DNA of 64,000 nucleotides, taken from contig CAWBBA010000015.1 in NCBI GenBank assembly GCA_963786905.1, positions 22,740-86,739 on the forward strand. Direction: 5' to 3'. The notes under the pieces are model-generated. The model made no database searches. It was not told where the DNA came from and saw nothing but the letters and a program-made list of their open reading frames with translations. The translations under genes were made by a program, and so were the position numbers. Shown in pieces: positions 5,434-21,857 of the stretch (positions within the stretch are counted from its first letter, which is position 1; every line of letters starts with the position of its first letter). The DNA is from an uncultured delta proteobacterium. GTDB taxonomy: Bacteria > Desulfobacterota > Desulfomonilia > Desulfomonilales > Desulfomonilaceae.

Positions 5434-7853
5434 GATCCTTGTAGCGGGAAGGTGAAGCTAAACGTGCTGCCTTTCGTCCACGTGCTTTCAGCGCTAATAT
5501 CGCCGCCCATCAAATCCGCCAGGCGTCGGCAAATTGCCAGGCCCAAGCCCGTCCCTTCGTAATTTCGCGACAGACCGGATTCAATCTGCCGGAACGGTTG
5601 AAACAAGGTCGTCAGATCATCGGGCTTTATCCCTATGCCGGTGTCGGAAACGCGGAGTCGGACGGCAGGCTGTCCGGAAGTCCCTCCGGACGATCTTGAA
5701 ATCGGGAACCAGCTCGGTCTTCAGAGCGACCTCACCGCTATCGGTAAACTTGATGGCATTATTGAGAAGGTTCAGCAGAATCTGTTCAACACGGCGCTGA
5801 TCGCCGACGGCCTCGCCAAGCCCCGGCACGATATTGCGCACGAAGGGCAAGACCTTTCTTTTCAGCCAGCGGTGCTACGATGCCTACGACCTTGTTGATA
5901 GATTCGCGCAAGTCGAACCGCTCACTGGCGACTTCAAGTTGCCCGGCTTCGATCTTGGAGATGTCGAGCACGTCGTTGATGAGCGCCAGCAAGTGACGGG
6001 AACTGGAGCGGACCATTTCGAGCTGCTTGGCCTGCTCCGGATTCAACGGCCCGGCCAGCCCTTGTAGGATGATTCCGGTGAAGCCGATGATTGAATTGAG
6101 CGGAGTGCGCAGTTCGTGCGACATAGTGGCCAGAAAGGCGGATTTGAGATTGGTCGGCCGCTTCGGCTCGCTCCTTGGCATGTGCCAATTCCCTGGTGCG
6201 CTCGGCCACGATCCGCTCCAACTCTACAGCGTGGCGGTGTGATGCCTCATTGATTTCTTCCTGCGCCCGTTTAAGTTCCGTGATGTCCGTGCCGATGCTC
6301 AGAACCTCGGCAATGTTTCCTCGCTCATCCAACACGATTCTGTTGGTCCAAGCTATCACGACGCGCTCTCCACTGCGCCGCATGTTTTCATTGACGTTTC
6401 GTTCGAACGCTTTTGGGTCCGCGAGAATCTGATCCATCAGAGGACCCAGGTCATCACCACTACTGTCCGTTACAGGGACGATCGTGCCGATAACATGGCG
6501 TCCGACGATCTCCTCGGAGGAGTAGCCAAAGAATTTCTGACCGAACTCGTTCAGAAGGTGATCTTTCCGTCGCGTGTCCAGCGCAGAATGATGCTGTTGG
6601 CGTGCTCCACAAGCTCGCGGATACTTTCGTTCGCTCTCCGCTAGCCGTGCTTCGGCCTTCTTACGGTCGGTGACGTCTCGCACCCAGACCTGAATGCCAG
6701 GTTCTTCGTCAAAAGAGAACGCCTTAGCTCTGATCTCTCCATCGAGCACAGTTCCTTCCTTTGATTGGAGTCTGACCTCATAGTGGTCTATCGCGCTTTC
6801 CCCGCGCAACCGAGCTTGCGCTCTGGCACGAGTCATTGGCTGGTCTTCAGGGTGATAGATAACCCAATGGTCCTCTCCAATGAGTTCCCCTGGTTCGTAG
6901 CCCAGCATCTCATGCAGGGGTTTGTTGGCGAAGATTATCTTGGTTCCTTTCTGCAAGAAAATCCCATCAAAACTGTCTTCCACGAGGGTCCTATACCTCT
7001 GCTCGCTCTCCCTCAGCGCTGCTTGAGCTTGATCAAGCTCGCGCCGGCGCCGCCGGATTTTCCAGTGGCCCGCACCGAGCGACAACAGTGCCAAGCCTCC
7101 GATACCGCTTTGGGCGCGCAGTTCCTCGCGTTGGTAATAGCTAAAGATCGCCTCGTCGTCCTTCATTGGCACGACCGCCCTGATACCACCGGGGATGGCC
7201 CCCTCTTGGTAGCCCTGTACCGAGTAGCATTTCAGGCATCTCGCCATGGTCTTAGTGGGTTGCATGAGCCGCAGGTGGGGCTGGCCTTCGATTAGCTCCA
7301 CTGAACTGACTTCGGCCGCGCCTCGCTCGAAGGCTTCCAGCGCTTTCCGCTCCCTAGCGACAGGGTCGTTTTCCGGCCGGATTGGCTTGAGGCTGGTGAT
7401 ATGGTCGCGATGCTCGTAGAGTTCTTTGCCCAACTCCTGCACCTGCCGGATCATGTGGGCAGGGTTCATGAGGGTCAGCGGATGGCCAGACCGTGTGGTA
7501 ATGTCCCGATCGGGTAGGTGCACCAGGTAACGATTCAGCGGAGTCTTGCCAGTTGTCGGCACATACACACCGCCGTGCATGTCAGCACCTTGACGGTACA
7601 GGAGGTCCTTTTCGAAGCAGGACCGGGCACCGATCCGCGCCATATCCTTGACCGTCCGGCGTATATGAGCCGTGGTCCACCACAAGGCCAGCACGACCGC
7701 CAGCGCCCAGATGCATGCTCTCATTGGAGCCCAACCGGGAATTAGGGGCAGGAGCAAAGGACCGGCATCGCTATGCGTAATAGCAAATCGCGATTTCGTT
7801 GTAATGGATTTCATTGAACACCTCAATTGCAGAGCAGCAGTTTGGTGTTCCAC
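5421..7853 (-). pseudogene. Sensor histidine kinase with DUF3365 (Tll0287-like) domain, PAS x2, HisKA and HATPase; frameshifted
   Basis: ORF 5934..7853 carries the DUF3365-like region (CLKCYSVQGYQEGAIPGGIRAVVPM), a TM segment and PAS domains. 5786..6181 holds HisKA (MSHELRTPLNSIIG). 5617..5850 and 5421..5606 hold HATPase ([13 protein letters not shown]). These pieces are in different frames. Confidence 0.7.
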
Positions 7854-8411: not shown

Positions 8412-9095
8412 CTACGGCAGCATGTAACCCACGCCCGAGACTGTGACAATGTAACGTGGTTCCGCAGGATTGTCCTCAAGCTTGGACCGCAAGTGCTGAA
8501 TGTGAACGTCGATTACACGACTGTCCCTGGACAATTCGCCTTCGGGCCATAGGGCCTGTCGGATCACGGTCCTGTTCAAGACTCGGCCTGCATTCCTGGC
8601 CAGCAACAGGAGGAGAGTGAATTCACGTTGCGTGAGACTGACCTTGACGCCCCTCTTGCAGACGGTGTTTTTTCCCACGTCTATTTTCAAATCACCCAAC
8701 TCGATAGTCTCAGCAGGGCTAATAACCTGTCCCTGTCGCCGTAGACAGGCCTTCATTCTGGCCGCGAGTTCCAAGTAATCGAAAGGTTTAACCAAATAAT
8801 CGTCAGCCCCGGTTTCCAGCCCCAGCACTTTATCGGGGAGACGATCCCTCGCGGTCAACATGATTATGGGGATGTTGGATCTTTCTCGGATGGACCTACA
8901 AACCTGAATGCCGTCAATATCGGGAAGGGAAAGGTCCAATATTATTAGGCCAACAGGAACCCTTTCGAACGCCTGCAACGCTTCCTTACCGGTTGAGGCC
9001 GTGAAAACGCTATATCCATCCAGTTCGAGATTGTCCCGAAGGATTCTGAGAATGTCGGGATCATCATCCACTACAAGTATTTGCCCAACCGCCAT
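8412..9095 (-). CDS. OmpR/PhoB-family response regulator (REC plus winged-helix)
   Basis: MAVGQILVVDDDPDILRIL...LIILDLSLPDIDG...LTARD...DDYLVKPF followed by the winged-helix LTQREFTLLLLLARNAGRVLNR...YIVTVSGVGYML. The likely start is ATG 9095, directly after the kinase stop. Confidence 0.9.
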   Translation of the reverse strand: MAVGQILVVDDDPDILRILRDNLELDGYSVFTASTGKEALQAFERVPVGLIILDLSLPDIDGIQVCRSIRERSNIPIIMLTARDRLPDKVLGLETGADDYLVKPFDYLELAARMKACLRRQGQVISPAETIELGDLKIDVGKNTVCKRGVKVSLTQREFTLLLLLARNAGRVLNRTVIRQALWPEGELSRDSRVIDVHIQHLRSKLEDNPAEPRYIVTVSGVGYMLP

Positions 9096-9097
9096 AA

Positions 9098-10772
9098 TTA
9101 TCCCTTCTGGACTCGCTTCTCTACTGAGGCCATCTTTGTCGGAAGAGAGAAAAAGAAGGAACTCCCCTCTCCCGGCCGGCTTTGTACCCATATGTGCCCG
9201 TGATGGGCTTCGACGAGACCTTTGCAGATCGCGAGCCCTATGCCAGAAGACCCTTTGTGGATCTTGCTATCCTGTTGCCCGCCAACCTGATAGAATTTCT
9301 TGAATATAGCCTCATGGTATTTTTCTTCTATACCGGGCCCGGAGTCTTGCACGCAGACCTCAGCCGACTCGCCGTCCGATGCGTTGATCCTGACGAAAAC
9401 CTTGTTTCCGGGTGGTGAAAATTTCACAGCGTTGGATAGCAAATTGGTGAGGACCTGGTAGATCCGCTGTTTGTCGAAGACCATACGCAAGTCCTCGGGC
9501 ACTTCCAGCACCAGTTCAACAGATCTCTTTTGAGCCACGACATTCTGGGAAAGAACCGCATCCTCGGCCACGTCTTTAAGGGAAGCTTCCTCAAGGTCCA
9601 GCTCCAGTTTGCCTGATTCGATCTTCGAGTAATCGAGAAAATCTATGGCGACCTTTATGAGGTGATCGGTATTTCTCTTTATGATGTCCAGATATGTAGG
9701 ATCCCCGCATGACGCCTTTCTGTCCAGAATGTCCGCCGCGCCTTTTATGTTGGTGAGAGGTGTTCTCAGCTCGTGAGAGATGTCGGAAAAAAAATCTGAC
9801 TTTGCCTGGTTAAGCCGTTCGAGGTCCAGGTTGGCTGCTTCAAGGCTTCTGTTAGTCTCCGACAGGTCGTGAGTGGCCTCGGCAATTTTCCGCTCCAACT
9901 CTTCGTGCTGGTTTCTTCATTTCTTCATCTAAAAGATAGCAAAAGTCCGCAATTTCTTTAAGTTCGTCCCCATGCCCACCGTGGTTCTCAACCTGTTTAC
10001 CGACAGTCATGCGGCTCATGGCCGCCCTGATATCGTTTAACCGCTTGAAGACCAGAGATTGCGCTGCAACAAACACCAGGATCACCAGCGATCCAGCGAA
10101 CACCATCCCCCCTCCCAGCAGAATGGCCCTGTTGTGATTGATTGCCGAACGGGCTTCATCCATCGGTATGAAAACGCTGAGGCACCCGCCCACATCCCCC
10201 GGCTTGTAACCTTGAGAGGTGTGGCACTTCACGCAATTCTCGTTTACGTACAAAGGCGCAACATAGCGAAGGACAGATTTGCCGTTGACCTGTTCGGTCC
10301 TGAACGTCTCGTCCTTCTCAGACGACCTGAAAAGTCGGAGAGCCTCCAACTCGAACGCGTCGGGAGCGTTCTCCTGGTTCAGTCTCTCGGTATTCGTAAG
10401 TTTAAAGGAATACAGGCCGCTCTTGAGGGCGCGCTCTGAAAGGAGCCTGGTCATAACTGAAGGGCTGATCCTTGTGTACGCGTTTCCGTCTGAACCGTGC
10501 ACATCGGGTTGGTTCAGGAAAGGATTTGAGCTAACCTCCCCGGTCTTCGGAACGAGTACGCCGTTGTGATCCGCCACCCACTGGCGGGTAAGAACAATCT
10601 GTTTGTGGAGTATTATTGCTTGCTTCTTGACCTGTTCCATAATATGGTCTTCCTGCTGACGCGAAAACCAGACGAATACTACAACGAATATTACGGTTAT
10701 GGTCAGGGAAGTGGCGACCAGGAATTTGAAAGAAACCCTTTGGCCGAGAAATATCTTCAACCGGTTAACCAT
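9098..10772 (-). pseudogene. Sensor histidine kinase with TM segment, DUF3365 c-haem domain (CVKCH), HAMP-like linker, HisKA and HATPase; one frameshift
   Basis: ORF 9852..10772 carries YVNENCVKCHTSQGYKPGDVGGCLSVFIPMDEA (CxxCH codons at 10221-10235). ORF 9098..9898 carries ISHELRTPLTNIKG and GSSGIGLAICKGLVEAHHG. The frames differ and the junction is near 9855-9895. Confidence 0.8.
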
Positions 10773-10923
10773 TTACACTGTATCCATTCATTATCGTTAT
10801 CAAAACAAGTTAGTGCGCGGTTGGAAACATAACTGTTGTCCCTTTGGCCATCAATGATGGTAGCGGGGGCGTGAACCGGAAGCGGCATTTTTTCGGGAAG
10901 TATTATGCCCAGGTTCGAAACAA

Positions 10924-10962
10924 CTTTACAGGATCTTTACAAACTTTTACAGCATCCTTACG
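10924..10962 (+). promoter_or_regulatory. Four direct repeats CTTTACA / CTTTACA / TTTTACA / CCTTACG at 10-11 bp spacing; candidate OmpR-family binding array
   Basis: TTACA cores at 10926, 10937 and 10947, and TTACG at 10958 (spacing 11, 10, 11). The array lies in the divergent intergenic region between the kinase/regulator operon and the octahaem cytochrome gene, about 10 bp upstream of a weak -10-like CACAAT/CAATAT. Confidence 0.4.
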
Positions 10963-11132
10963 GCAACGCGTGTCACAATATGAACCAAATGGGCCAAAGG
11001 TTTAGCCTCCACCACAGCGGGGCAAGGAATCCAGCGGGTCGTCCTCATTTAGGGATGACCCAGCGGAGATCCGGCAAACCTCGGAAGTAACATGTTTATG
11101 AAAGCACTATATCGATACGGGGAGTGGATGCC

Positions 11133-12494
11133 ATGAGAAGAATTCTCATCCTGGTCGCACTGGCGCTTTTTGTCTGTTCCTACGCGGCTGATGCCGCGGT
11201 AAAAGTTGACCCGAAATTGTATGGGTCGCCCGAGGGGCAGGTCTGCATCAAATGCCATGAGCTGAAGTCCCCTGGCCTGTTTAAGCTGTGGCGGTCCGGA
11301 AAGATGGGGCAGGCGGGGGTCAACTGCTACGACTGCCATAAGGCAGAGAAGAAGACAGACAAGATACCGGGGGACCCGGACGGGTACGACCACCGGGGCT
11401 TCTGGATCGCTACGCTGGTCAGCCCAAAAGACTGTTCCCGGTGCCATAAGGAGCAGTTCGACCAGCAGCAGGTTTCCCACCATGCTAAGGCAGCGGATAT
11501 TCTGAATTCTTCTGACAACTACCTTGGCACGGTGGTCGGTGGACCGGCCGCGGTGAATACAGGGTGCCGCCAGTGCCACGGCTCCAACATCAAGGTACTC
11601 AAAGATGGGAAACTGGATCCCGATACCTGGCCTAATACCGGAATCGGCCGCATAAACCCTGATGGAAGTAAAGGGAGCTGTTCCGCGTGTCACACCAGGC
11701 ACCGTTTTTCCAAGGAACAGGCCAGGCGCCCGGACGCGTGCGGAAAGTGTCATCTCGGTCCGGATCATCCCCAGATCGAGGTTTTCAACGAGAGCAAGCA
11801 CGGCATCCTCTACCAGGCGTTCAGGGACAAGATGAACATGGACAAAGGGGAGTGGGTAGTCGGGGTCGACTACCAGGACTCAGCCACATGCGCTACATGT
11901 CATATGGGGGCCACGCCAAATCAAGCGGCGACTCACGACGTGGGCCAGCGAATCTCCTGGACCCTGCGGCCTGTGGTCTCCAAAAAGCTGGAGCATTGGA
12001 AAGACCGGCGGGACAAGATGAAAGACGTATGCCGCCAGTGCCACGGGGACTTCATGGTCAACGATTTCTACAGTCAGTTCGATGGTCTCGTGGACTTGTA
12101 CAACAATAAGTTCGCTATTCCTGCTATGAACGTCCGCCAGAAACTGATGGACACGGGCAAACTCACCAAGGCAGACTTCGACGACAAGCTGGACTGGATC
12201 TATTACGAACTGTGGCATCACGAAGGCCGCCGCGGACGGCACGGCGCTGCCATGATGGGTCCGGACTATGCATGGTGGCATGGTATGTATGAGGTGGCAA
12301 AGCATTTCTATACGTCTTTTCTCCCTGAAGTCGAGAGAATCATGGGCGGAAAGGATGCGGCAATGCCTATCCTTAACGAGTACGTCTTCAAGGATCCCCA
12401 GCATCGCTGGTATAAGGACGGGATGAGCAAGGAAGAACTGCAGAAGATAGAGCAGTTCTATCAGCAAAGGTACGGCGGCAAAGAGGCCAAGTAA
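11133..12494 (+). CDS. Secreted octahaem cytochrome c of the hydroxylamine oxidoreductase (HAO) family
   Basis: Eight CxxCH motifs (CIKCH, CYDCH, CSRCH, CRQCH, CSACH, CGKCH, CATCH, CRQCH). There is a signal peptide MRRILILVALALFVCSYAADA and a C-terminal YYELWHHEGRRGRHGAAMMGPDYAWWHG region typical of HAO-like proteins. GGGGAG lies 8 nt upstream of ATG 11133. Confidence 0.7.
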   Translation: MRRILILVALALFVCSYAADAAVKVDPKLYGSPEGQVCIKCHELKSPGLFKLWRSGKMGQAGVNCYDCHKAEKKTDKIPGDPDGYDHRGFWIATLVSPKDCSRCHKEQFDQQQVSHHAKAADILNSSDNYLGTVVGGPAAVNTGCRQCHGSNIKVLKDGKLDPDTWPNTGIGRINPDGSKGSCSACHTRHRFSKEQARRPDACGKCHLGPDHPQIEVFNESKHGILYQAFRDKMNMDKGEWVVGVDYQDSATCATCHMGATPNQAATHDVGQRISWTLRPVVSKKLEHWKDRRDKMKDVCRQCHGDFMVNDFYSQFDGLVDLYNNKFAIPAMNVRQKLMDTGKLTKADFDDKLDWIYYELWHHEGRRGRHGAAMMGPDYAWWHGMYEVAKHFYTSFLPEVERIMGGKDAAMPILNEYVFKDPQHRWYKDGMSKEELQKIEQFYQQRYGGKEAK

Positions 12495-12531
12495 GACTCG
12501 TCTGAGGCCACGTTAATACAAGGGCGCCTTC

Positions 12532-13134
12532 ATGAAAGGAACCACTAGAATCCGGAGACTTGTTCTGCCGGTTCTGATCCTGGGCCTGATCACACTGTGC
12601 CTGGGATTGGGAACCGGCTTGACCCTGGCCCAATTCCAGGACCGGACCCAGCCGTCGCCTGAAGATATCGAACGCGAATCCGATCAGGAATTTCCGGTCC
12701 CGTTGACACCCCTGCCGAAGACCATCACTCCGTGCCGTGCTTGTCACGGTCCGGAGAAGGATTTTCCCGTAAACTTCCAAAGGCGGGAAGATTTGCTTGT
12801 CCATAAGAATGTAAAGCTCAGCCACGGCGGCGTGCGAGTCTGGTGCCTGGACTGCCACAGCCCTGATAATCGCAACTATCTCTTGCCGCTGAGTGACGGC
12901 AAGCCAATTGATTTCGAGCACTCGTATCTTCTCTGCGGCAAATGCCACGGCACCAAGTACAGGGACTGGCGAAACGGCATACACGGTAGAAGGACCGGCA
13001 ATTGGAACGGTGAAAAGACCTACTACCGGTGCGTGAGTTGTCACGATCCGCATTCGCCCAAATTTAAGCCAATCGAGCCCATGCCCCCTCCCAGGAAGCC
13101 GTGGACCCCAAAAGAAACCAAGGCCAAGCACTAA
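12532..13134 (+). CDS. Membrane-anchored tetrahaem cytochrome c
   Basis: One N-terminal TM helix (LVLPVLILGLITLCLGLGTGL) and four CxxCH motifs (CRACH, CLDCH, CGKCH, CVSCH). The first haem motif lies about 40 residues beyond the helix and has no CxxCHxM. Confidence 0.75.
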   Translation: MKGTTRIRRLVLPVLILGLITLCLGLGTGLTLAQFQDRTQPSPEDIERESDQEFPVPLTPLPKTITPCRACHGPEKDFPVNFQRREDLLVHKNVKLSHGGVRVWCLDCHSPDNRNYLLPLSDGKPIDFEHSYLLCGKCHGTKYRDWRNGIHGRRTGNWNGEKTYYRCVSCHDPHSPKFKPIEPMPPPRKPWTPKETKAKH

Positions 13135-13146
13135 AGGTTCAGAGCC

Positions 13147-14124
13147 ATGAGCGATCAGACTGATAGTTCCGGTAAAGACAAATCAAACTCCGCAAGTGAA
13201 TCTGACTCCGAAATTGCGAAGAGACCGGATTCTCAATCCGCGGAGAATCGCAGCATGCTCCCGGATCGACGCACGTTCCTAGCCGGAGCTGCGAGTGTCC
13301 TGGGGATGATGGCGGTCAGCTCGTGCTCGTGGCAGGAATTCTTTCAGCAGCAGTTTCAAAGAATGACCAAGAAGGAGATCGAAGAGACGGTCGCCCGGCT
13401 TCAGGAGGACTACAAGAAGAAATACGGAAAGGAATTCGTGGTCGGGGCAGAATCCCCCATCGACGGAACCCTCTTTCGGTACGGGCTTGATATTCAGCGT
13501 TGCATCGGCTGTCGCCGGTGCGTGTACGGCTGCGTGGAAGAGAACAACCTGTCGAGAGACCCGCAAATCCAATACATAAGAGTCCTCAGGTTCAAAGACG
13601 GAAACATGGATCTCGAAGAATCGGACATCTACTACGAACCTGAAGAGGTGCCGGAGAAGGGCTATTACTACATGCCGGTGCAATGCCAGCATTGCGCCAA
13701 CGCGCCTTGTACCAAGGTGTGCCCTGTGCGGGCAACATGGACAGAGCCCGACGGCATTGTGGTGGTCGATTACAACTGGTGTATCGGATGCCGCTACTGC
13801 ATGGCAGCGTGCCCGTACATGGGCCGATGGTTCAATTTTTCCGACCCTGGTATTCCAAGCGAGCAGGTGAATCCCAAAACTCACTATCTGGGGAATCGTC
13901 CGAGAATGCGCAATGTGGTGGAAAAGTGCACTTTTTGCATTCAGAGAGTCCGCAAAGGGATATACCCCAAATGCGTCGAGGTCTGCCCGGTCGGAGCCCG
14001 CAAGTTCGGCAATCTCCTCGATCCCAACAGCGAAATCAGCATGATCATAAAGACCAAGAGGGTCTTCCGTTTGAAGGAAGATCTGAACACGCAGCCGAAA
14101 TTTTATTACTTCTTCGCTACTTGA
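13147..14124 (+). CDS. Tat-exported four-cluster [4Fe-4S] protein (NrfC/PsrB/DmsB-like)
   Basis: Twin-arginine motif DRRTFLAGAAS. Cys clusters are CIGCRRCVYGC, CQHCANAPCTKVCP, CIGCRYCMAACP and CTFCIQRV...CVEVCP. Confidence 0.85.
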   Translation: MSDQTDSSGKDKSNSASESDSEIAKRPDSQSAENRSMLPDRRTFLAGAASVLGMMAVSSCSWQEFFQQQFQRMTKKEIEETVARLQEDYKKKYGKEFVVGAESPIDGTLFRYGLDIQRCIGCRRCVYGCVEENNLSRDPQIQYIRVLRFKDGNMDLEESDIYYEPEEVPEKGYYYMPVQCQHCANAPCTKVCPVRATWTEPDGIVVVDYNWCIGCRYCMAACPYMGRWFNFSDPGIPSEQVNPKTHYLGNRPRMRNVVEKCTFCIQRVRKGIYPKCVEVCPVGARKFGNLLDPNSEISMIIKTKRVFRLKEDLNTQPKFYYFFAT

Positions 14125-14127
14125 CAG

Positions 14128-15386
14128 GTGGGGAACGTCATGCAGAGATCCGGATTCCTATTCGCAGCAGCCAGGAGGCTCACGACAGGTCCCCGAATAT
14201 ATTACATTTGGGTTCTGGTGCTGCTCGTCACGGCCATTGTCGGCATCGCGGCCTATACCAGGCAGCTTCAGCAGGGCCTGATCGTCAGCGGTATGACGAG
14301 CTACGTCTCCTGGGGATTGTACATCGGGAACTTTACGTTCCTGGTCGGTGTGGCCGCGGCCGCGGTACTCCTCATCATTCCAGCCTACCTCTATGACTTC
14401 GGCCCCATCAAAGAGGTCGTCATCGTCGGAGAAGCGCTGGCAGTGAGCGCGCTTTGCATGTGTCTCATGTTCGTCACGGCCGACTTAGGACGTCCTGACA
14501 GGGTTTGGCATCTCATACCAGGTCTGGGCATATTAAATCTGCCGCGGTCCCTCCTCGGATGGGACATAGTGGTTCTGAACGGGTATCTGTTTCTGAACCT
14601 CTTCATTCCCGGGTACTTGCTGTGGAACGCATACCATCAAAAGCCTGAAAACACGAACTTCATCCTTCCCTTCATTCTTCTTTCCATCCCCTGGGCGGTC
14701 AGCATACACACCGTAACCGCGTTTATTTACAATGGTCTCGTAGCGCGACCATTCTGGAACGCTTCCATTCTGGCCCCAAGATTTCTGGCGTCCGCTTTCT
14801 GTTCCGGACCGGCGCTGGTAATCCTCCTGTACCAGATCGTCAGAAAGTACACTCAAATTTCACGTCAAAGACGAAGCGCTCTTCAAAATCGCGGAGATGA
14901 TCTCGATCGCGATGGCGGTCAATCTGTTCTTGCTTGGAGCGGAATTCTTCAAGGAACTCTATTCGGACACCCATCATCTGTCCCCTTTGAGATACCTTTA
15001 TGCCGGCCTTCACGGCAAAGGGGTGCTTATCCCGTGGATATGGACTGCTTTCACATTCAACATCATTGCATTCTTCATTTTTCTCATACCGGTTACCCGC
15101 AAGAATTTCGCAACTCTCAACGCGGGGTGCGTTCTCATCATAGTGGGTATCTGGATCGAAAAAGGGATGGGCCTGATCATTCCGGGATTTATCCCTGCGC
15201 CATTAGGCGAGGTCTGGGAGTACCTGCCGACAAGGATCGAAATCCTCGTGATCCATGGGGATATGGGCTATCGGACTGCTCATACTCACCCTGATACTGA
15301 AAATCATTATTCCCATCGAAACCGGGGAGTTCACTAAGGCGACGCAGATCGAGAGAGCATACCCACACGTTGGAGTACATCCATGA
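14128..15386 (+). pseudogene. NrfD/PsrC-like polytopic membrane quinol-interacting subunit, with at least 2 frameshifts
   Basis: ORF 14128..15294 reads as a multi-TM protein until about 14870. ORF 14897..15337 continues it (MISIAMAVNLFLLGAEFF...). A third frame gives the C-terminus IWAIGLLILTLILKIIIPIETGEF, ending with a TGA that overlaps the next ATG (ATGA at 15383-15386). Confidence 0.7.
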
Positions 15387-16231
15387 ATACGAAGGCCGAG
15401 GCAGGCATTGTTGTGAGCAGAAGGCCGCGCTTCAAAGCAAGACTTTGGGCTCTCGCTGTGATCGCCAGTGCTTCGGTGCTCATGACCGCCTTGCCGCCGC
15501 CTTCTGTGGGAGCGGACACTGCTCCGGCCAAGGATTTGAGCACTCTTCTCAACGATCTCAACAGTCCTGACCCGGCAGTGGCGTCTCAAGCCGCGACCGA
15601 GATCAAGAACCAGCACGCGAAGCAAGCAATACCTGCTCTGGCCCAGGCAATTAAGCATCCTAATGAAATCGTGCGACTCACGGTGATCGAGGCGCTTTCA
15701 GAGATCGGTCCCGACGCGGCCCCCGCGGTTCCGGCTCTGGCTGAGGCGCTTAAGGACAAAGACCCAATGATCAGGGAAGCTGCGGCATTGGCCTTGCTCA
15801 GCGTGGGGAGGCAGAGCACCGGTGCGGTGCCCGCGTTGGTATCCGCCCTGGGTGACGAAAACAAGCGGGTCCGCGACAGCGTGGTCTTGGCCCTTGTGAA
15901 TATCGGTGAAGCTGCGGTCCCGGACCTGATTAAGGCCCTTGAGAGCAAAGATCAGTCTGTCAGATCCTCGGCCACGACAGCTCTGGGAAGGATCGGAGGC
16001 CCGGCTGTCCCGGCCTTGGTGGCCCTGCTCAAGAAGGGAGACCCTCACAGCTCGACGGCGGCTTCAAAAGCCCTGGGAGAAGTGGGAGCCCCCGCAGTCG
16101 CGCCGCTGATAGAGCTGTTAACGACCGCAAAAGCGGAAGCTTCGAAACTTGCCGGAGAAAGCCTGGCGGCCATCGGTGCGCCGGCCGTCCCTCCCCTGGT
16201 AGATGCATTGCTGAAAAGGAAACAGCAGTAA
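15383..16231 (+). CDS. Exported HEAT-repeat (PBS-lyase HEAT-like) protein
   Basis: Hydrophobic N-terminal signal followed by about 7 repeats of the pattern xxVRxxAxxALGxIGxxAVPALxxAL. Confidence 0.75.
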   Translation: MNTKAEAGIVVSRRPRFKARLWALAVIASASVLMTALPPPSVGADTAPAKDLSTLLNDLNSPDPAVASQAATEIKNQHAKQAIPALAQAIKHPNEIVRLTVIEALSEIGPDAAPAVPALAEALKDKDPMIREAAALALLSVGRQSTGAVPALVSALGDENKRVRDSVVLALVNIGEAAVPDLIKALESKDQSVRSSATTALGRIGGPAVPALVALLKKGDPHSSTAASKALGEVGAPAVAPLIELLTTAKAEASKLAGESLAAIGAPAVPPLVDALLKRKQQ

Positions 16232-16345
16232 GCGGCAGACCTGTTGTGACCTACACTTTGAAATGACCGCCGCGACCGGTATTCAGACACTGGACATTGA
16301 AAAGTTTGTCGGAACATGGCCTTCGAAGTGAAGGAGGAGAAGAAG

Positions 16346-16858
16346 ATGAAAAAGACAGTCTATTCCCTGATGATCCTGTCTCTCTTTCTCTGCGTGCCTA
16401 TGCAGGCCACGACTCAAGACAAGGATTGTCCCGACTGTCCCAAGAGCTCAACTACCAGCACTTCTCTCGATGCCAAGTGGAAGGAGTTCACCCCGCCAGC
16501 GCTGGCGCCGGGAGAGCGGCCTGATTGCCACCGCGTGCAGTTCGGGAAACAGGACTGTGCCGAATGCCACAAAAAGGAGACCCCCGAGAGCTACAAAGCT
16601 GGTTGGGTTCCAAGCACGGCATCAATAGTGTGAAGTGCGGCATTTGTCACGGTGACGTGAACAATTATCGGGCCAGGCCGGACAGAGTGGTCTGCATTGG
16701 ATGCCACTCCGCGCAGGTCCATAACATGCCTGCCCAGGCTCTTGGTGACCAATTGCTCGTTCTGCCACAAGGGCCATTGGTTCACGGTCCACAAGATAAA
16801 AGATTACGAGAAGTTCTCTCCCGGAAGAGAGCAGCGTTTCAAAGTGCCCGGCTTCTAA
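16346..16858 (+). pseudogene. napM: NapM-like periplasmic tetrahaem cytochrome c, 2 frameshifts
   Basis: AAGGAGG precedes ATG 16346, followed by the signal peptide MKKTVYSLMILSLFLCVPMQA. The four haem motifs CAECH, CGICH, CIGCH and CSFCH are spread over three frames. The last frame reads VTNCSFCHKGHWFTVHKIKDYEKF and ends with TAA at 16856-16858. Confidence 0.6.
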
Positions 16859-16895
16859 GCGCTCTAGACCCGTTATCCGACTTTTGGAGGACACC

Positions 16896-19288
16896 ATGAG
16901 TATGACTCGAAGAGAAATGATAAAGTTGTCGGCGGCGGCATTTGCCGCAGGAGCCTTGAATATACCGTTCGCCGGACGTGCTGACGCATCGGGGGAGCCC
17001 ATGGAAGTGGACAAATGGGTCAAGGGCACATGTCGCTTTTGCGGTACAGGTTGCGGCGTCTATGTGGGAGTCAGGAAGGCAAGTGGTCGGTATCCGGGGT
17101 AATCCCCAAGCCGCGACCAATTTCGGGTTCCTATGCGTCAAGGGATTCAAAGGTTACATGAGCATGTACCACCCGGACCGGCTGAACTATCCCTTGGTTA
17201 AGGCAGAAGACGGAAAGTTCAAGCGAGTCTCCTGGGACGTGGCGCTCGACACTGTGGCGAACAAGTTCAAGGAACTGCAACAGAAGTACGGGAAGGACTC
17301 GGTGGCCTTTTACGGGTCCGGTCAGTGCATGACCGAAGAGAGCTACACCTTCAACAAGCTCTGGAAAGGCGGCTTCGGTTCCAACATGGTGGAAGGCAAT
17401 CCGCGGCTGTGCATGGCTTCGGCTGTGGGCGGGTACGTCACGACTTTCGGCACAGACGAGCCCGCAGGGTCCTACGCTGATATCGAGAAGGCGAAGACTT
17501 TTTTCATCGTGGGTTCCAACATGTCGGAGTGCCATCCGATTATTTTCCGCCGCGTAGCACGACAGAAGCTCAAAGATCCGGACAAGATCAACATCATCGT
17601 CTGCGAGCCTAGGCTCACTTCCACTGCACGGATTGCGGACGTCTGGCTCCCCGCGGACCCGGGCACCGATCTCGCGGTTTTTCATTGCATGGCCCGAGAA
17701 ATCGTCAAAAACAACTGGATTGATAAGTGGTACGTGGAGAACCTCTGTAGATTCACCACTGGAACAGAAGTCGGATTTCAAGACTTATGCTCAATTCCTC
17801 GAGCAGTTCACTCCTGAAGCGGTGGAAAAGACTGACACGATGCCCTGCGGCCAACATCAGGGAGGCGGCCCGGCTGTTCGGGACCCAGGGACCGACCATG
17901 AGTCTGTGGACCATGGGTCTGAATCAGACGGACGAGAGGCGTTTGGGCCAATAATCTGATTCACAATCTCCACCTGATCACGGGCAATATCTGTAAGGAA
18001 GGAGCAGATTCCTTTTCACTGACGGGACAACCCAACGCGTGCGGCGGCGTACGTGAGACGGGCTCCCTGTGCCATCTCCTTCCAGGGACCCGACCTGTGG
18101 CGAATGCGGCGGCCAGGGAGCAGGTCGAGAAGGCGTGGAAAATCCCCGCGGGGAAAATTGATCCCAAGCCGGGGTTCCACACCATGGAGATGTTCGCAAA
18201 GCTGGGAGCAGAGAACGACGCTTCCAAGCCGCTCAAAGGAATGTTCGTCACCACCACGAACCCTGCTCAATCGCTACCGAACGGCCACAAGTACTGGAAA
18301 GGAATGAAGGACGGGTTTCTCGTAGTTGCCGACATCTTCCCGACACGAACCACGCAGTTCGCCGACGTGATATTGCCCGCGGCCTTTATTTACGAGAAGG
18401 GCGGAGTTTTCGGCTGCTCCGAACGCCGCAGCCAGCTCACCGGAAAGTGCGTAGAACCTCCCGGTGAGGCTAAACCGGACCTCTGGATGGCCGCGCAGCT
18501 TGCCAAGCGCATGGGACTGGAAAAACTCATCCCGTGGAACGGCGATGATGCTCCTGCGAGTTAACAAAATGGCCTGGGATGATTACCGGGAATGCGTAAA
18601 GATGACCGAGCACACGCTTTACGGCATAACCTACGAACGGCTCCAGAAATCGGAAGAAGGGCTCCAGTGGCCGTGTCCAGACGACAAGAGCCCTGGAACG
18701 GCCATACGCTACGTGCGCGGCAAAGACCCACTCATGAACATGCCCGAAATCGTCAAAGTGCCGCCACAGGCTCTAATCTATTTCTACGGGGATCAACAGC
18801 ACGAAGGCAAAGCGAACGTGTTTCTGAGGCCTTACAAGGGGCCGGAAGAGCCGCCGGACAAGGAGTATCCGTTTTTCCTGACCACCGGCCGTGTTATCGA
18901 ACAGTGGCACAGCGGCACCATGACCATGCGGGTGCCGGAAATAGCTCGCTCCCAGCCCAATGCTTATGTGGAGATCAATCCGAAGGATGCGGAGGCGTAC
19001 GGCATCAAGAACGGCGACATGGTGAAAATGATCAGCCGCCGCGGCTTCAACATATTGCCTGCCCGGGTGGTGAAGATGTCGCTGCCCGGAATTCTTTTCG
19101 TCCCGTGGTTTGATCAGGATTGGGATCGGATGATGAACCGGGTGACCATCGACGCGTTTGATGACGGTTCTAAACAACCTGAGTTCAAAATTTGTGCGGT
19201 ACGAATCGAACGGGTGGGTGATCCCAAAGACGTGGCGGACATGACGATCATCTCCAGTGTGGACGCCCCATTTCCGGAAAAGGTGTGA
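16896..19288 (+). pseudogene. napA: Periplasmic nitrate reductase catalytic subunit NapA, at least 5 frameshifts
   Basis: Tat signal MSMTRREMIKLSAAAFAAGAL and the N-terminal FeS motif KWVKGTCRFCGTGCGV. Fragments 16884..17102, 16978..17817, 17633..17959, 18097..18564 and 18464..19288, plus an unlisted frame (PAANIREAARLFGTQGPTMSLWTMGLNQ), tile a full NapA. Confidence 0.85.
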
Positions 19289-19525
19289 CGAGACGATCGT
19301 AATCGTTCACCGCGGAAATCGCGAGATCGCAGAGAAAGCGTTTTTCTGTGTTTGTTGCTGAGCAAGAAGCATAGTGGATTGCGAGTGAATCACCTTGAAC
19401 ATGTGCATTGGCTGAGTCTTCGTGTCCCGATACGTATTAACTCATTTGAGCTCATTATCTCTGCGATCTCGGCGCACTCTGCGGTAAATCCTGCTTTCTG
19501 ATCCAAAGCTCCGGAGCTTTCCCCA

Positions 19526-19828
19526 ATGGTCATCACCGGCAGTGCCCTTCTTATCAAGCGCGGCGCGGACATAGAGGTCCTGGAGCGGCTTAAGCAGTTC
19601 CCTGAGGTGACTTTCCACGTGAAGTCGGAATCGGGAACCGAACTGGTTGTGAATTTCGAAGCTGAGGACCACGATTCGTTGGAGCGGCTCTGCACAAGGA
19701 TTAAGGAGGCGATTCCCGAAATCATCGAAATAGCCCATGTGTATGTGAATTTTGAAGACGAGATCGAAAAGATCAAGTCGGGAAAAATTGTTAAGGGATC
19801 GCTTAACAAGCCGAAGTTCGACGAATGA
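19526..19828 (+). CDS. napD: NapD-like chaperone
   Basis: 100-aa protein (LIKRGADIEVLERLKQFPEVTFHVKSESGTELVVNFEAEDHDSLERLCTRIKEAIPEIIEIAHVYVNFE) with the NapD-type pattern, positioned after napA. Confidence 0.6.
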   Translation: MVITGSALLIKRGADIEVLERLKQFPEVTFHVKSESGTELVVNFEAEDHDSLERLCTRIKEAIPEIIEIAHVYVNFEDEIEKIKSGKIVKGSLNKPKFDE

Positions 19829-20205: not shown

Positions 20206-21018
20206 ATGGTAATTTCAGGAGAACAACGAACCTTGAGTTCAGGTTGGATAAATAGTCTTCTGAAACGGTTTCTTGGTGAGCGCGAGAATCCTCTGGCAAA
20301 TCAGTACAGCGAGAACCGTCTTCGCCCTCCCGGAGCAGTGGACGAGAAACGATTTATGGCGCTTTGCATACGCTGCAATCGCTGCCTGGAGGTCTGTCCG
20401 TACAACTCAATCCGGCGCGCGGGCCTGGGCACAACTATGGGAACGCCTTACGTTCTGCCGCTGGAGAAGGCTTGTTATCTTTGCATGGCCTGCTGCCGCC
20501 TCTGTCCTACAGGGGCACTGGACAGGCTCCTGAGCAACCCCGAGGGCGTTGCGATGGGCAAAGCCAGGATCGACACCTCCATCTGCTACAGCCACCTCTT
20601 TGTGGACCATGATGTGCTGCCTGAAAACGCAGGCCAAAAGATCGGTGCGCTTTGCAACACGTGCTACAATGTTTGTCCGCTTCCCGACAAAGCCATAGCG
20701 CTGAAGCAGAACCTCTTCCCTGTAATTCTGGACGGTTGCGTAGGTTGCGGTATCTGCACCGAAAGGTGCCCTACCCGTCCCAGACGGGCGATCAACGTGA
20801 TTCCCGCGGGTGTGGGGCGGGTTGACGAGGCAGGGTTCTATTTTCGCAAGGCCCGGAAACACTTTGAGTCAGCGGTGCGTGTGGAAAGGGACGGGGCATC
20901 AGGGGCCTTGAAAGGGGAGCAACTTCTAGAGCAGAAATCCTTAATTGAAGGGACCAAGGAACAGCCGCAATTCGAATTCCCATACCAGGTTCCAAAATTC
21001 ATAGAAGGTTGGGATTGA
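20206..21018 (+). CDS. napG: NapG-like multi-cluster 4Fe-4S ferredoxin
   Basis: LRPPGAVDEKRFMALCIRCNRCLEVCP, CYLCMACCRLCP, CNTCYNVCP and CVGCGICTERCP. The start codon is uncertain. Confidence 0.7.
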   Translation: MVISGEQRTLSSGWINSLLKRFLGERENPLANQYSENRLRPPGAVDEKRFMALCIRCNRCLEVCPYNSIRRAGLGTTMGTPYVLPLEKACYLCMACCRLCPTGALDRLLSNPEGVAMGKARIDTSICYSHLFVDHDVLPENAGQKIGALCNTCYNVCPLPDKAIALKQNLFPVILDGCVGCGICTERCPTRPRRAINVIPAGVGRVDEAGFYFRKARKHFESAVRVERDGASGALKGEQLLEQKSLIEGTKEQPQFEFPYQVPKFIEGWD

Positions 21019-21857
21019 TGTACGGGCCGTACAGAAAAACAGTTCAGATACTGGTGTTCGGGATCATGTTCGGGATCCCGTTACTCAATTTGTATGAAAT
21101 ATATGCAGTGACCGGTACTTTCTACGCGGTCAACATCGGGGGGCTCGGCATAGCTGATCCAGTGGTAATCCTTCAAGCGATATTTGCATCGGGCGAACTC
21201 ACAGTGCCATTGCTGGGCGCAGCCCTTTTCCCCGTCTTTATTGCGCTGTTATTCGGCAGAATCTGGTGCGGCTGGATGTGTCCTTTTCACCTGCTGGCCG
21301 ACGTCGCGGCGTGGTTACGCAGACGATTCAGAGGAAAAGGCTCGCGGCTTGCCAGGGATGAAAGCTTGGTGGTCGCGGATTCATTCAAGGCCAACACTTG
21401 GCGCTATGGCTTCCTCGCCGCGGGAACCCTCGCGGCCGGTGCTATCAGCATCCCCGTCCTGAACTACGTGAGCGCTCCCGGTATTCTGAGCACGGAAGCG
21501 ATGATACTGGTCAAAGAACGGATGGTGTCACTGGAGTTCTCTTTCATAGCCCTTCTTTTCCTCCTCGAACTGTTAATCTTACCCCGTTTCTGGTGCAGGC
21601 TCTTCTGCCCCACCGGCGCTTTTATTGCAGTCTTTCGCGTCCCCTTCACTCTCCGGGTCGGGACGAGTATAAGAACTCCCAAGGCCCCATGTTGCAAGGA
21701 GAACCGATGTTCAGGCGCGTGTCCGATGGGTCTGGCGCCTTTCCGGGAGGGGAACAATCTGCTCTGCACGAACTGCGGCCTGTGTATCGATGCGTGCCGA
21801 GCGGCAGAAGGTTCTGGTAGGCTGAGATTCCAAGGCTTTCAGGCATTTGATCGGTGA
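21009..21857 (+). CDS. napH: NapH-like membrane FeS protein
   Basis: Four TM helices with CGWMCPFHLL and RFWCRLFCPTGA motifs, and a C-terminal CSGACPMG...CTNCGLCIDAC. Overlaps the end of napG. Confidence 0.8.
   Translation: MGLMYGPYRKTVQILVFGIMFGIPLLNLYEIYAVTGTFYAVNIGGLGIADPVVILQAIFASGELTVPLLGAALFPVFIALLFGRIWCGWMCPFHLLADVAAWLRRRFRGKGSRLARDESLVVADSFKANTWRYGFLAAGTLAAGAISIPVLNYVSAPGILSTEAMILVKERMVSLEFSFIALLFLLELLILPRFWCRLFCPTGAFIAVFRVPFTLRVGTSIRTPKAPCCKENRCSGACPMGLAPFREGNNLLCTNCGLCIDACRAAEGSGRLRFQGFQAFDR

Follow-up and report, generated by a model that had tools for sequence, protein, structure and literature searches.

The 64-kb window analyzed here (64,000 nucleotides (nt) of contig CAWBBA010000015.1, from an uncultured delta proteobacterium; all positions are those of the window) carries at 11133-15386 an operon of four genes: hao, encoding an octahaem cytochrome c of the HAO family, followed by a tetrahaem cytochrome c gene (c4), an iron-sulfur (FeS) protein gene and an NrfD-family gene, the last three of which are referred to below as the trio. 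We consider it fairly probable, from sequence comparisons, that this locus serves a Desulfomonilales-type bacterium as an island for the respiratory ammonification of nitrate and nitrite, with an electron path that leads from menaquinol to Hao. In this path, the DsrP-like NrfD-family subunit would oxidize menaquinol and release protons to the periplasm, and the electrons would then cross the four [4Fe-4S] clusters of a DsrO-like protein exported by the twin-arginine translocation (Tat) system before reaching the small tetrahaem cytochrome with its four bis-His haems. The IhOCC-type Hao would receive these electrons and reduce nitrite from the adjacent NapMADGH to ammonium, with hydroxylamine or nitric oxide (NO) as possible further substrates. 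A HEAT-repeat protein would be a conserved accessory, and control of the operon probably lies with a haem-sensor kinase and a regulator encoded divergently from it. We infer which way the electrons flow, what the substrate and the product are, and the physical contacts between these proteins. The proposed site of menaquinol oxidation follows from the homology of the membrane subunit to the DsrP of DsrMKJOP, in which cryo-electron microscopy finds menadiol bound within 8 Å of a DsrO cluster, with protons passed to the periplasm (bioRxiv 10.64898/2026.08.25.746951). What the sequence data show beneath this proposal is which families the proteins belong to, the gene order and how far it is conserved, and that the genes are intact once two insertions are set aside.

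The hao open reading frame (ORF) covers 11124-12494 on the plus strand, and its likely start is the ATG at 11133, which has a GGAG 8 nt upstream and gives a protein of 453 residues, a length shared by its homologues. This protein carries a Sec signal and exactly eight CxxCH motifs, which account for all 16 haem cysteines and leave a single further Cys in the signal peptide. Toward the C-terminus lie the motifs YYELWHHEGRR and DYAWWHG, both nearly invariant among 81 relatives; the export signal, the haem count and these two motifs are all as the preliminary description of this DNA, made from the sequence alone, had reported them. The same description proposed a profile and structure comparison to test its HAO-family assignment, and the assignment holds. 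Hao scores 92 bits on Pfam PF13447 (HAO family) against a cutoff of 21.9, and in searches of the PDB the best match is IhOCC (4qo5; E 6e-43, and 2e-59 with a profile), followed by other HAO-family proteins (NeHAO, Kuenenia HOX and HDH at E ~1e-19, and Kustc0458 at 5e-18). All PDB matches with E<1e-10, in sequence and profile searches, are HAO, HOX, HDH or IhOCC. A Foldseek search with the AlphaFold2 model of Hao, whose predicted local distance difference test (pLDDT) score is 61, likewise returns the HAO family in all of its top 11 positions, with IhOCC first and the tyrosine-less Kustc0458 second. Taken as a family prediction, the octahaem protein is robustly placed within the HAO family, of whose members IhOCC, a tyrosine-less nitrite reductase, is the nearest to it.

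The literature presents IhOCC as an octahaem nitrite reductase that lacks P460 (PMC9250108), and Kuenenia Kustc0458 is a tyrosine-less HAO that converts nitrite to NO (PMC8042395). Both of these enzymes, together with epsilon-Hao, share with Hao the same eight CxxCH motifs in HAO order and the Asp-His distal pair. In Hao this pair is D214/H215, which aligns to D267/H268 of NeHAO and is invariant in 45 homologues, and the fourth haem motif of Hao aligns with the P460 haem motif of NeHAO. The C-terminal helical region of IhOCC also aligns with that of Hao, including the region around the missing cross-link loop. The two proteins differ in that their overall identity is ~24% (Foldseek), that Hao has ~50 extra C-terminal residues (408-456), and that their partner genes are not the same. 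At the position of the NeHAO distal active-site residue Tyr334, Hao has Arg282, an Arg that is invariant in the same 45 homologues; a cationic residue at this position could favour nitrite binding.

Other multihaem families were considered for the octahaem protein and rejected. An octahaem nitrite reductase of the ONR type (TvNiR, TaNiR) is set aside because Hao has no CxxCK motif and ONR matches appear in Foldseek at E>2 alone, and NrfA because CxxCK is again missing and the PDB match is marginal (E 0.0035, 19 bits). For MccA and OTR there is no PDB match at E<=0.01, and neither a CX15CH nor a Cu-site motif is found among the eight plain CxxCH motifs. Among individual enzymes, the TaNiR of Trichlorobacter (PMC12142623) was rejected as a CxxCK-containing ONR-type enzyme, and MccSep (PMC13510729) as a pentahaem selenoprotein.

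A further point of comparison is the cross-link tyrosine, which in P460-type HAO, HOX and HDH bonds the catalytic haem of the neighbouring subunit. From PDB chains, this residue was fixed as Tyr467 of NeHAO (in GGWTYTEG), with Tyr415 as its equivalent in the KsHOX chain. When Hao is aligned via IhOCC, the Tyr467 loop falls on a shortened Hao loop, MMGPDYAWW, in which Trp384 or a gap stands where the tyrosine would be and Tyr382 lies two residues before; this alignment fits the predicted helix order of a long helix, a helix pair and a second long helix. MAFFT and a low-confidence hhalign alignment conflict with this route, and instead place Tyr430 (in HRWYKDG) at NeHAO Tyr467. Among 81 family members, column 430 holds Tyr in 49, a gap in 16, Phe in eight, Leu in five, His in two and Val in one, while column 382 holds Tyr in 76 and Phe in three. 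Because column 430 is so variable, its residue does not behave as one essential for a P460 cofactor, and this variability together with the affinity to IhOCC argues for a reductive, non-cross-linked enzyme, although the two alignments conflict. The reverse direction of electron flow, with a P460-type Hao that oxidizes hydroxylamine or a related compound and passes electrons through the tetrahaem and FeS proteins to quinone, would be favoured by the placement of Tyr430 at NeHAO Tyr467. It is highly improbable, given that column 430 is not conserved, that the IhOCC-route alignment yields a shortened loop with Trp or a gap, that the nearest relatives are tyrosine-less reductive enzymes, and that the hosts are anaerobic, with nap genes adjoining.

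The genes that follow hao are conserved with it in its clade. A scan of one genome per species finds a relative of Hao in at least 594 species, and the best 80 were retrieved. The locus set for this census comprises 83 loci, labelled with L-numbers, in 15 of which Hao is 77-96% identical and in 65 of which it is 48-64% identical. The close loci come from metagenome-assembled genomes (MAGs) labelled Desulfomonilaceae, Desulfomonile tiedjei, Desulfomonilales, Syntrophaceae and similar, while the loci at 48-64% come from Nitrospirota, Bacteroidota, Acidobacteriota, Geobacterales, Gammaproteobacteria and others. The best matches to the window among the retrieved loci, L006 and L029, are MAGs of uncultured delta proteobacteria with MFD-prefixed isolate names and ~89% nucleotide identity. 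In this census, which the preliminary description had suggested, the order hao, c4, FeS, NrfD is found in all 14 informative loci of the clade with Hao at >=77% identity, with the trio directly after hao, and in none of the 65 loci at 48-64%, all of which lack the tetrahaem gene beside hao. The coupling of Hao to the trio is thus a clade-specific arrangement.

The conserved neighbourhood extends beyond these four genes. Of the 11 informative close loci, ten have a HEAT-repeat gene behind the NrfD-like gene and seven have napM and napA further on; in most close loci, genes for a kinase and a regulator stand upstream of hao. The four-gene unit put forward in the preliminary description stands insofar as the trio follows hao throughout the clade, but the unit is larger, with the HEAT gene, napMADGH and a divergent two-component system. 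In another reading the electron path is the same, but Hao would make NO from nitrite or would mainly detoxify hydroxylamine and NO while nitrate is reduced. In its favour, the second-best structural match, Kustc0458, forms NO from nitrite (PMC8042395), the HAO family is promiscuous among N-oxides (PMC9250108), and 4 of the 11 loci have no nap nearby. We nevertheless regard this as unlikely, as IhOCC is nearest by sequence (E 6e-43 versus 5e-18 for Kustc0458), a three-subunit quinol module with a two-component system exceeds what detoxification usually needs, and NrfA-less ammonifiers with an analogous cluster yield ammonium (PMC5276818).

In the proposed path, the trio would be the quinol module for Hao. 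The tetrahaem protein (12532-13134, plus strand) has an N-terminal hydrophobic stretch and a variable linker, with the first of its four CxxCH motifs (CRACHGP) at residue 68. Four further His residues are invariant (H91, H98, H151 and H174), and four bis-His haems are predicted on this basis. The N-terminal helix fits either a membrane anchor or a cleaved signal (..TLA/Q), so that of the membrane-anchored tetrahaem cytochrome described earlier, the four CxxCH motifs and the hydrophobic helix are confirmed, but the helix may equally be a cleaved signal. As the preliminary description had argued, this is not a NapC/NirT/NrfH protein: PF03264 (Cytochrom_NNT) gives 17.6 bits against a cutoff of 24.1, no CxxCHxM is found at the first haem motif, and a search of the PDB finds no NrfH chain at E<=10. 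The FeS protein (13147-14124, plus strand) carries the Tat motif DRRTFL and four Cys clusters, in agreement with its original description as a Tat-signal protein with four clusters. On NCBIfam models it scores 181.2 for DsrO (cutoff 200), 150 for QrcC and 122 for NrfC (cutoff 377.6). The membrane protein (14128-15386, plus strand), corrected to 418 residues, scores 427.6 bits for DsrP (cutoff 350) and 19.7 for NrfD (cutoff 347.6), and is an NrfD-family integral membrane protein with a putative menaquinol site. By these scores, the FeS and membrane proteins are predicted to be a pair of DsrO and DsrP homologues, not NrfC and NrfD proper. The NrfCD-like module of the preliminary description is therefore borne out as an FeS/NrfD-family pair conserved with hao, but not as NrfC and NrfD themselves. 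The membrane protein passes the NCBIfam DsrP cutoff though no dsrMKJ adjoins, and automatic annotation would probably mislabel this paralogue as part of a sulfite-reduction complex.

The trio also occurs apart from Hao. The tetrahaem family is large, with 1265 clusters at 50% identity in a full HMMER search, and among distant relatives of c4 (39-50% identity) the order tetrahaem, FeS, NrfD-family is kept in eight of eight. The FeS and membrane proteins of these eight trios are 45-60% identical to those of the window, and in none of them does Hao stand beside the trio. Their neighbours vary instead. Three trios (L084, L085 and L086) have no other cytochrome gene adjoining, one (L087) lies beside a divergent napDAB, one (L088) beside cytochromes with 7 to 11 haems, one (L089) near Cytochrome_CIII-, c7- and c554-like cytochrome genes, one (L090) beside a 26-haem cytochrome, and one, on a JGI contig, beside a c554-like protein. 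The constant order with such varied neighbours indicates that the trio is a self-contained, widespread module that occurs with different periplasmic cytochromes. Three of these loci are described further. In L087 (489-7194), napD-napA-napB run divergently from the trio and neither napC nor napGH is in view, and the trio might be the quinol module for Nap there. In L090 (5235-10115), the trio comes directly after the 26-haem cytochrome. In L088 (1752-9738), it comes after cytochromes of 11, 9 and 7 haems, and its own cytochrome is duplicated, with eight haems.

In predicted haem ligation and gene order, the window trio has the architecture of two modules already described, and matched on architecture and published descriptions it is a DsrOhPh-tetrahaem / Geobacter Cbc4-type module. 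The DsrOhPh-tetrahaem locus is known from cable bacteria, some Desulfobulbales, and Gamma- and Betaproteobacteria, and its authors speculate on a role in passing quinol electrons to the periplasm (PMC13047784; bioRxiv 10.64898/2026.08.25.746951). Like the window trio, it combines DsrO and DsrP homologues with a tetrahaem cytochrome that has four His-His haems, away from dsrMKJ. Compared by description, the window trio differs in that it follows hao and precedes the HEAT and nap genes, with no TMH1 gene seen. Cbc4 of Geobacter sulfurreducens consists of CbcS, CbcT and CbcU (GSU0068-0070; bioRxiv 10.1101/2025.04.14.648717). Also compared by description, it resembles the trio in its anchored tetrahaem cytochrome, whose haems are all four bis-His and whose N-terminal helix leads into an unstructured linker, and in pairing a four-[4Fe-4S] protein with a cofactor-less integral membrane subunit. 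It differs in that the role discussed for Cbc4 is extracellular electron transfer, in which PpcA would be its partner.

In this assembly the membrane gene is frameshifted. Relative to L006, which served as the reference for indels and for the ratio of nonsynonymous to synonymous substitution rates (dN/dS), ten isolated indels of 1-2 nt occur in 10.7 kb (window 8557-19292), none of them in a homopolymer. The kinase gene is split by a 1-nt insertion at 9915, the NrfD-family gene has 1-nt insertions at 14854 and 15251, napM has indels at 16600, 16744 and 16865, and napA at 17080, 17832, 17927 and 18563. Removal of the insertions at 14854 and 15251 restores an ORF of 418 residues that ends at 15386 and equals the L006 protein in length. 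In this corrected frame, dN/dS against L006 is 0.08 overall, with 0.05 before 14854, 0.10 between the insertions and 0.12 after 15251, and values this low indicate that selection acted on the full-length frame. The preliminary description had counted real frameshifts in the NrfD-like gene against its own proposal; given the ten lone indels in 10.7 kb and the dN/dS of 0.08, the insertions are most likely assembly errors, with very recent decay as a lesser possibility. Ten lone indels outside homopolymers, spread over four genes, would also fit real frameshifts (membrane subunit, napM, napA and kinase) in a decaying cluster that makes no working complex. We think this very unlikely, because dN/dS stays at 0.10-0.12 downstream of the frameshifts, hao, c4 and the FeS gene are intact, the MAGs of L006 and L029 likewise show broken genes, and intact orthologues are present in 14 other loci.

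The plus strand from 11.1 to 21.9 kb is a tight row of genes from hao to napH. The gaps of 37, 12 and 3 nt given by the preliminary description are correct for hao to c4 (37 nt, to 12532) and c4 to FeS (12 nt, to 13147), while the third measures 3 nt to the GTG at 14128 but 15 nt to the ATG at 14140 (MQRSG), which is the start used by the homologues. The HEAT gene (15383-16231) overlaps the stop of the membrane-protein gene with its start, and encodes a protein with an N-terminal export or anchor signal (180 bits on Pfam HEAT_2). This HEAT-repeat (PBS-lyase-like) protein has an N-terminal signal of the SRRPRF type and follows the trio also in loci that lack nap; a role in docking or maturation is possible. 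The nap genes follow on the plus strand. A napM-like tetrahaem cytochrome gene (16316-16899) and napA (16884-19288; catalytic subunit of the periplasmic nitrate reductase, Tat signal) are both broken by the indels described above; the intact napM homologue in L002 has 170 residues and four CxxCH motifs, and the L002 napA orthologue scores 656 bits on the NapA model NF010055, its best family, yet below the cutoff of 904. Further downstream lie an ORF for a napD-like chaperone (19526-19828; its L001 and L002 homologues match Pfam NapD), a napG-like ferredoxin gene (20206-21018; Fer4 domains, with NapG as the best family of the L002 orthologue) and a gene for a napH-like membrane FeS protein (21009-21857; Pfam Fer4_5). 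Apart from the octahaem, tetrahaem and napM proteins, no multihaem protein is found among the window ORFs, and neither dsrM, dsrK nor a trihaem dsrJ is found in the operon or the window.

Divergent from hao, on the minus strand, are an OmpR-type response regulator gene (8412-9191; the L001/L002 homologue has Response_reg and Trans_reg_C domains) and a sensor histidine kinase gene (9098-10772) whose product has a periplasmic Tll0287-like haem-c domain (CVKCH; Pfam PF11845, 72 bits). Intact homologues of this kinase in L001 and L002 have 546-573 residues with HisKA and HATPase domains, and 8 of the 15 close loci have an OmpR-type regulator upstream of hao. The kinase is one of two sensors with Tll0287-like domains upstream of the operon, at 5934-7853 and 9098-10772, both on the minus strand, and it is the nearer one, with the CVKCH motif, that is kept with the response regulator upstream of hao in most close loci.

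Several points weigh against respiratory nitrite ammonification through this island. Nap does not need the trio, as its cluster already includes the quinol module NapGH. In L004, L005, L007 and L029, no nap gene follows the HEAT gene within the available sequence (the sizeable ORFs that come next in L005 and L029 lie on the opposite strand), and with 4 of 11 close loci lacking nap nearby, the nitrate link is not obligatory. That the trio almost never accompanies a Hao at 48-64% identity (0 of 65) means that Hao can use other donors. Scans for promoters and terminators were uninformative, with counts equal to the shuffled expectation. The frameshifted membrane gene belongs here as well, as do the AlphaFold2 models: that of the tetrahaem protein has a pLDDT of 47 and was excluded from the fold search, and that of Hao (pLDDT 61) has a poor haem core, and its Foldseek ranking was used but its geometry was not. 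Finally, sulfur substrates are possible, given a Dsr-derived module in what is likely a sulfate-reducing host. A complex that reduces sulfite, tetrathionate, thiosulfate or polysulfide, in the manner of MccA with MccCD or of OTR, would suit a membrane module homologous to DsrOP in Desulfomonile-like sulfate reducers; the authors of the Thermosulfurimonas papers kept this alternative open (PMC5276818), and multihaem reductases are discussed as promiscuous for N and S anions (PMC13510729, discussion). With eight plain CxxCH motifs and neither CX15CH nor a Cu-site motif, no sequence relation to MccA or OTR (no PDB match at E<=0.01), and linkage to nap rather than to sulfur genes in 7 of 11 loci, we judge a sulfur substrate quite unlikely.

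As a putative nitrite-reducing system, the operon can be set beside several known ones. E. coli NrfABCD shares its logic, with a multihaem nitrite reductase in the periplasm, a small carrier that also has several haems, a Tat-exported FeS protein and an NrfD-type quinol subunit (PMC12285233). However, the window operon has an HAO-type catalytic subunit with eight CxxCH and no CxxCK, a carrier with four haems and not five (17.8 on the NrfB model NF008659, against a cutoff of 184), and FeS and membrane proteins that, unlike E. coli NrfCD, fall far below the NrfC and NrfD cutoffs. By this analogy, the operon is a putative functional counterpart of E. coli NrfABCD built from different families. 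Wolinella MccABCD likewise has an octahaem catalytic cytochrome fed by an NrfC/NrfD-type quinol module, but its octahaem protein is of a different family, with no MccA similarity found in Hao, it has no carrier cytochrome, and its substrate is sulfite. From DsrMKJOP, the window module differs in having no co-encoded DsrM, DsrK or trihaem DsrJ.

A further counterpart is an 11-gene nap cluster in Thermosulfurimonas dismutans (TDIS_0599-0609), with a similar cluster in Dissulfuribacter thermophilus (PMC4911364, PMC5276818, PMC9676032). This cluster holds napMADGH and genes for periplasmic proteins without a named function, together with a four-gene locus that encodes a multihaem cytochrome homologous to Hao, another cytochrome c, a 4Fe-4S protein and a member of the NrfD family. 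Both organisms ammonify nitrate and lack NrfA, the four-gene locus has been hypothesized to reduce nitrite, and the cluster has also been reported from T. marina and strain F29 (PMC4911364, PMC5276818, PMC9676032). Compared by description, the composition is the same as in the window, but the order of the four genes appears different, and there are two genes of unnamed function versus one. In the literature, we found no characterized example of these clusters, and no published link between the DsrOhPh-tetrahaem/Cbc4 module and Hao. The preliminary description had held that this wiring was not a characterized system, which is correct in that none has been characterized, but the trio was already described and a cluster of the same composition had been proposed for nitrite in 2016-17. 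Because that cluster was noted in Thermosulfurimonas and Dissulfuribacter at that time, the finding is an uncharacterized variant and not a new kind of system.

Outside the close clade, the same Hao family is found with other partners. In three Nitrospirota / Dissulfurispiraceae MAGs (L015, L020 and L021, at ~11350-15500), hao is followed by a molybdopterin enzyme of ~900-930 residues, and in L015 and L020 this is followed in turn, within the available sequence, by a 249-residue FeS protein and an NrfD-like protein (a 423-residue ORF in L020). The arrangement in L015 and L020 is a different, Psr/Ttr-like pairing for this Hao family. One Geobacteraceae locus has four-haem and five-haem proteins after hao, and in several gammaproteobacterial loci hao is accompanied by genes for a small protein and a dihaem cytochrome. 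In a Burkholderiales MAG (L003, 6250-9347), hao overlaps the end of a NiFe-hydrogenase large-subunit gene, and the surrounding hydrogenase operon also encodes a CCG-domain FeS protein, which suggests a hydrogen-linked use of Hao in another lineage.

A broader proposal, which we offer tentatively and hold to be possible rather than probable, is that the DsrOhPh-tetrahaem/Cbc4 module is a general menaquinol:multihaem-cytochrome oxidoreductase, for which the IhOCC-type Hao of this operon would be the first clear physiological acceptor, giving an energy-conserving, NrfA-independent nitrite ammonification in sulfate-reducing Desulfomonilales, with the HEAT-repeat protein as a new assembly or docking factor. 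The value of the locus lies in a proposed acceptor for the trio module, which is present in many phyla and here gains a testable partner, and in a marker for ammonification that is independent of nrfA. In genomes and metagenomes, nitrate ammonification is usually tracked via nrfA, and a Hao route with its own quinol module would escape that marker. If the proposal is true, relatives of sulfate reducers that are common in soils and groundwater would join the organisms that retain nitrogen as ammonium.

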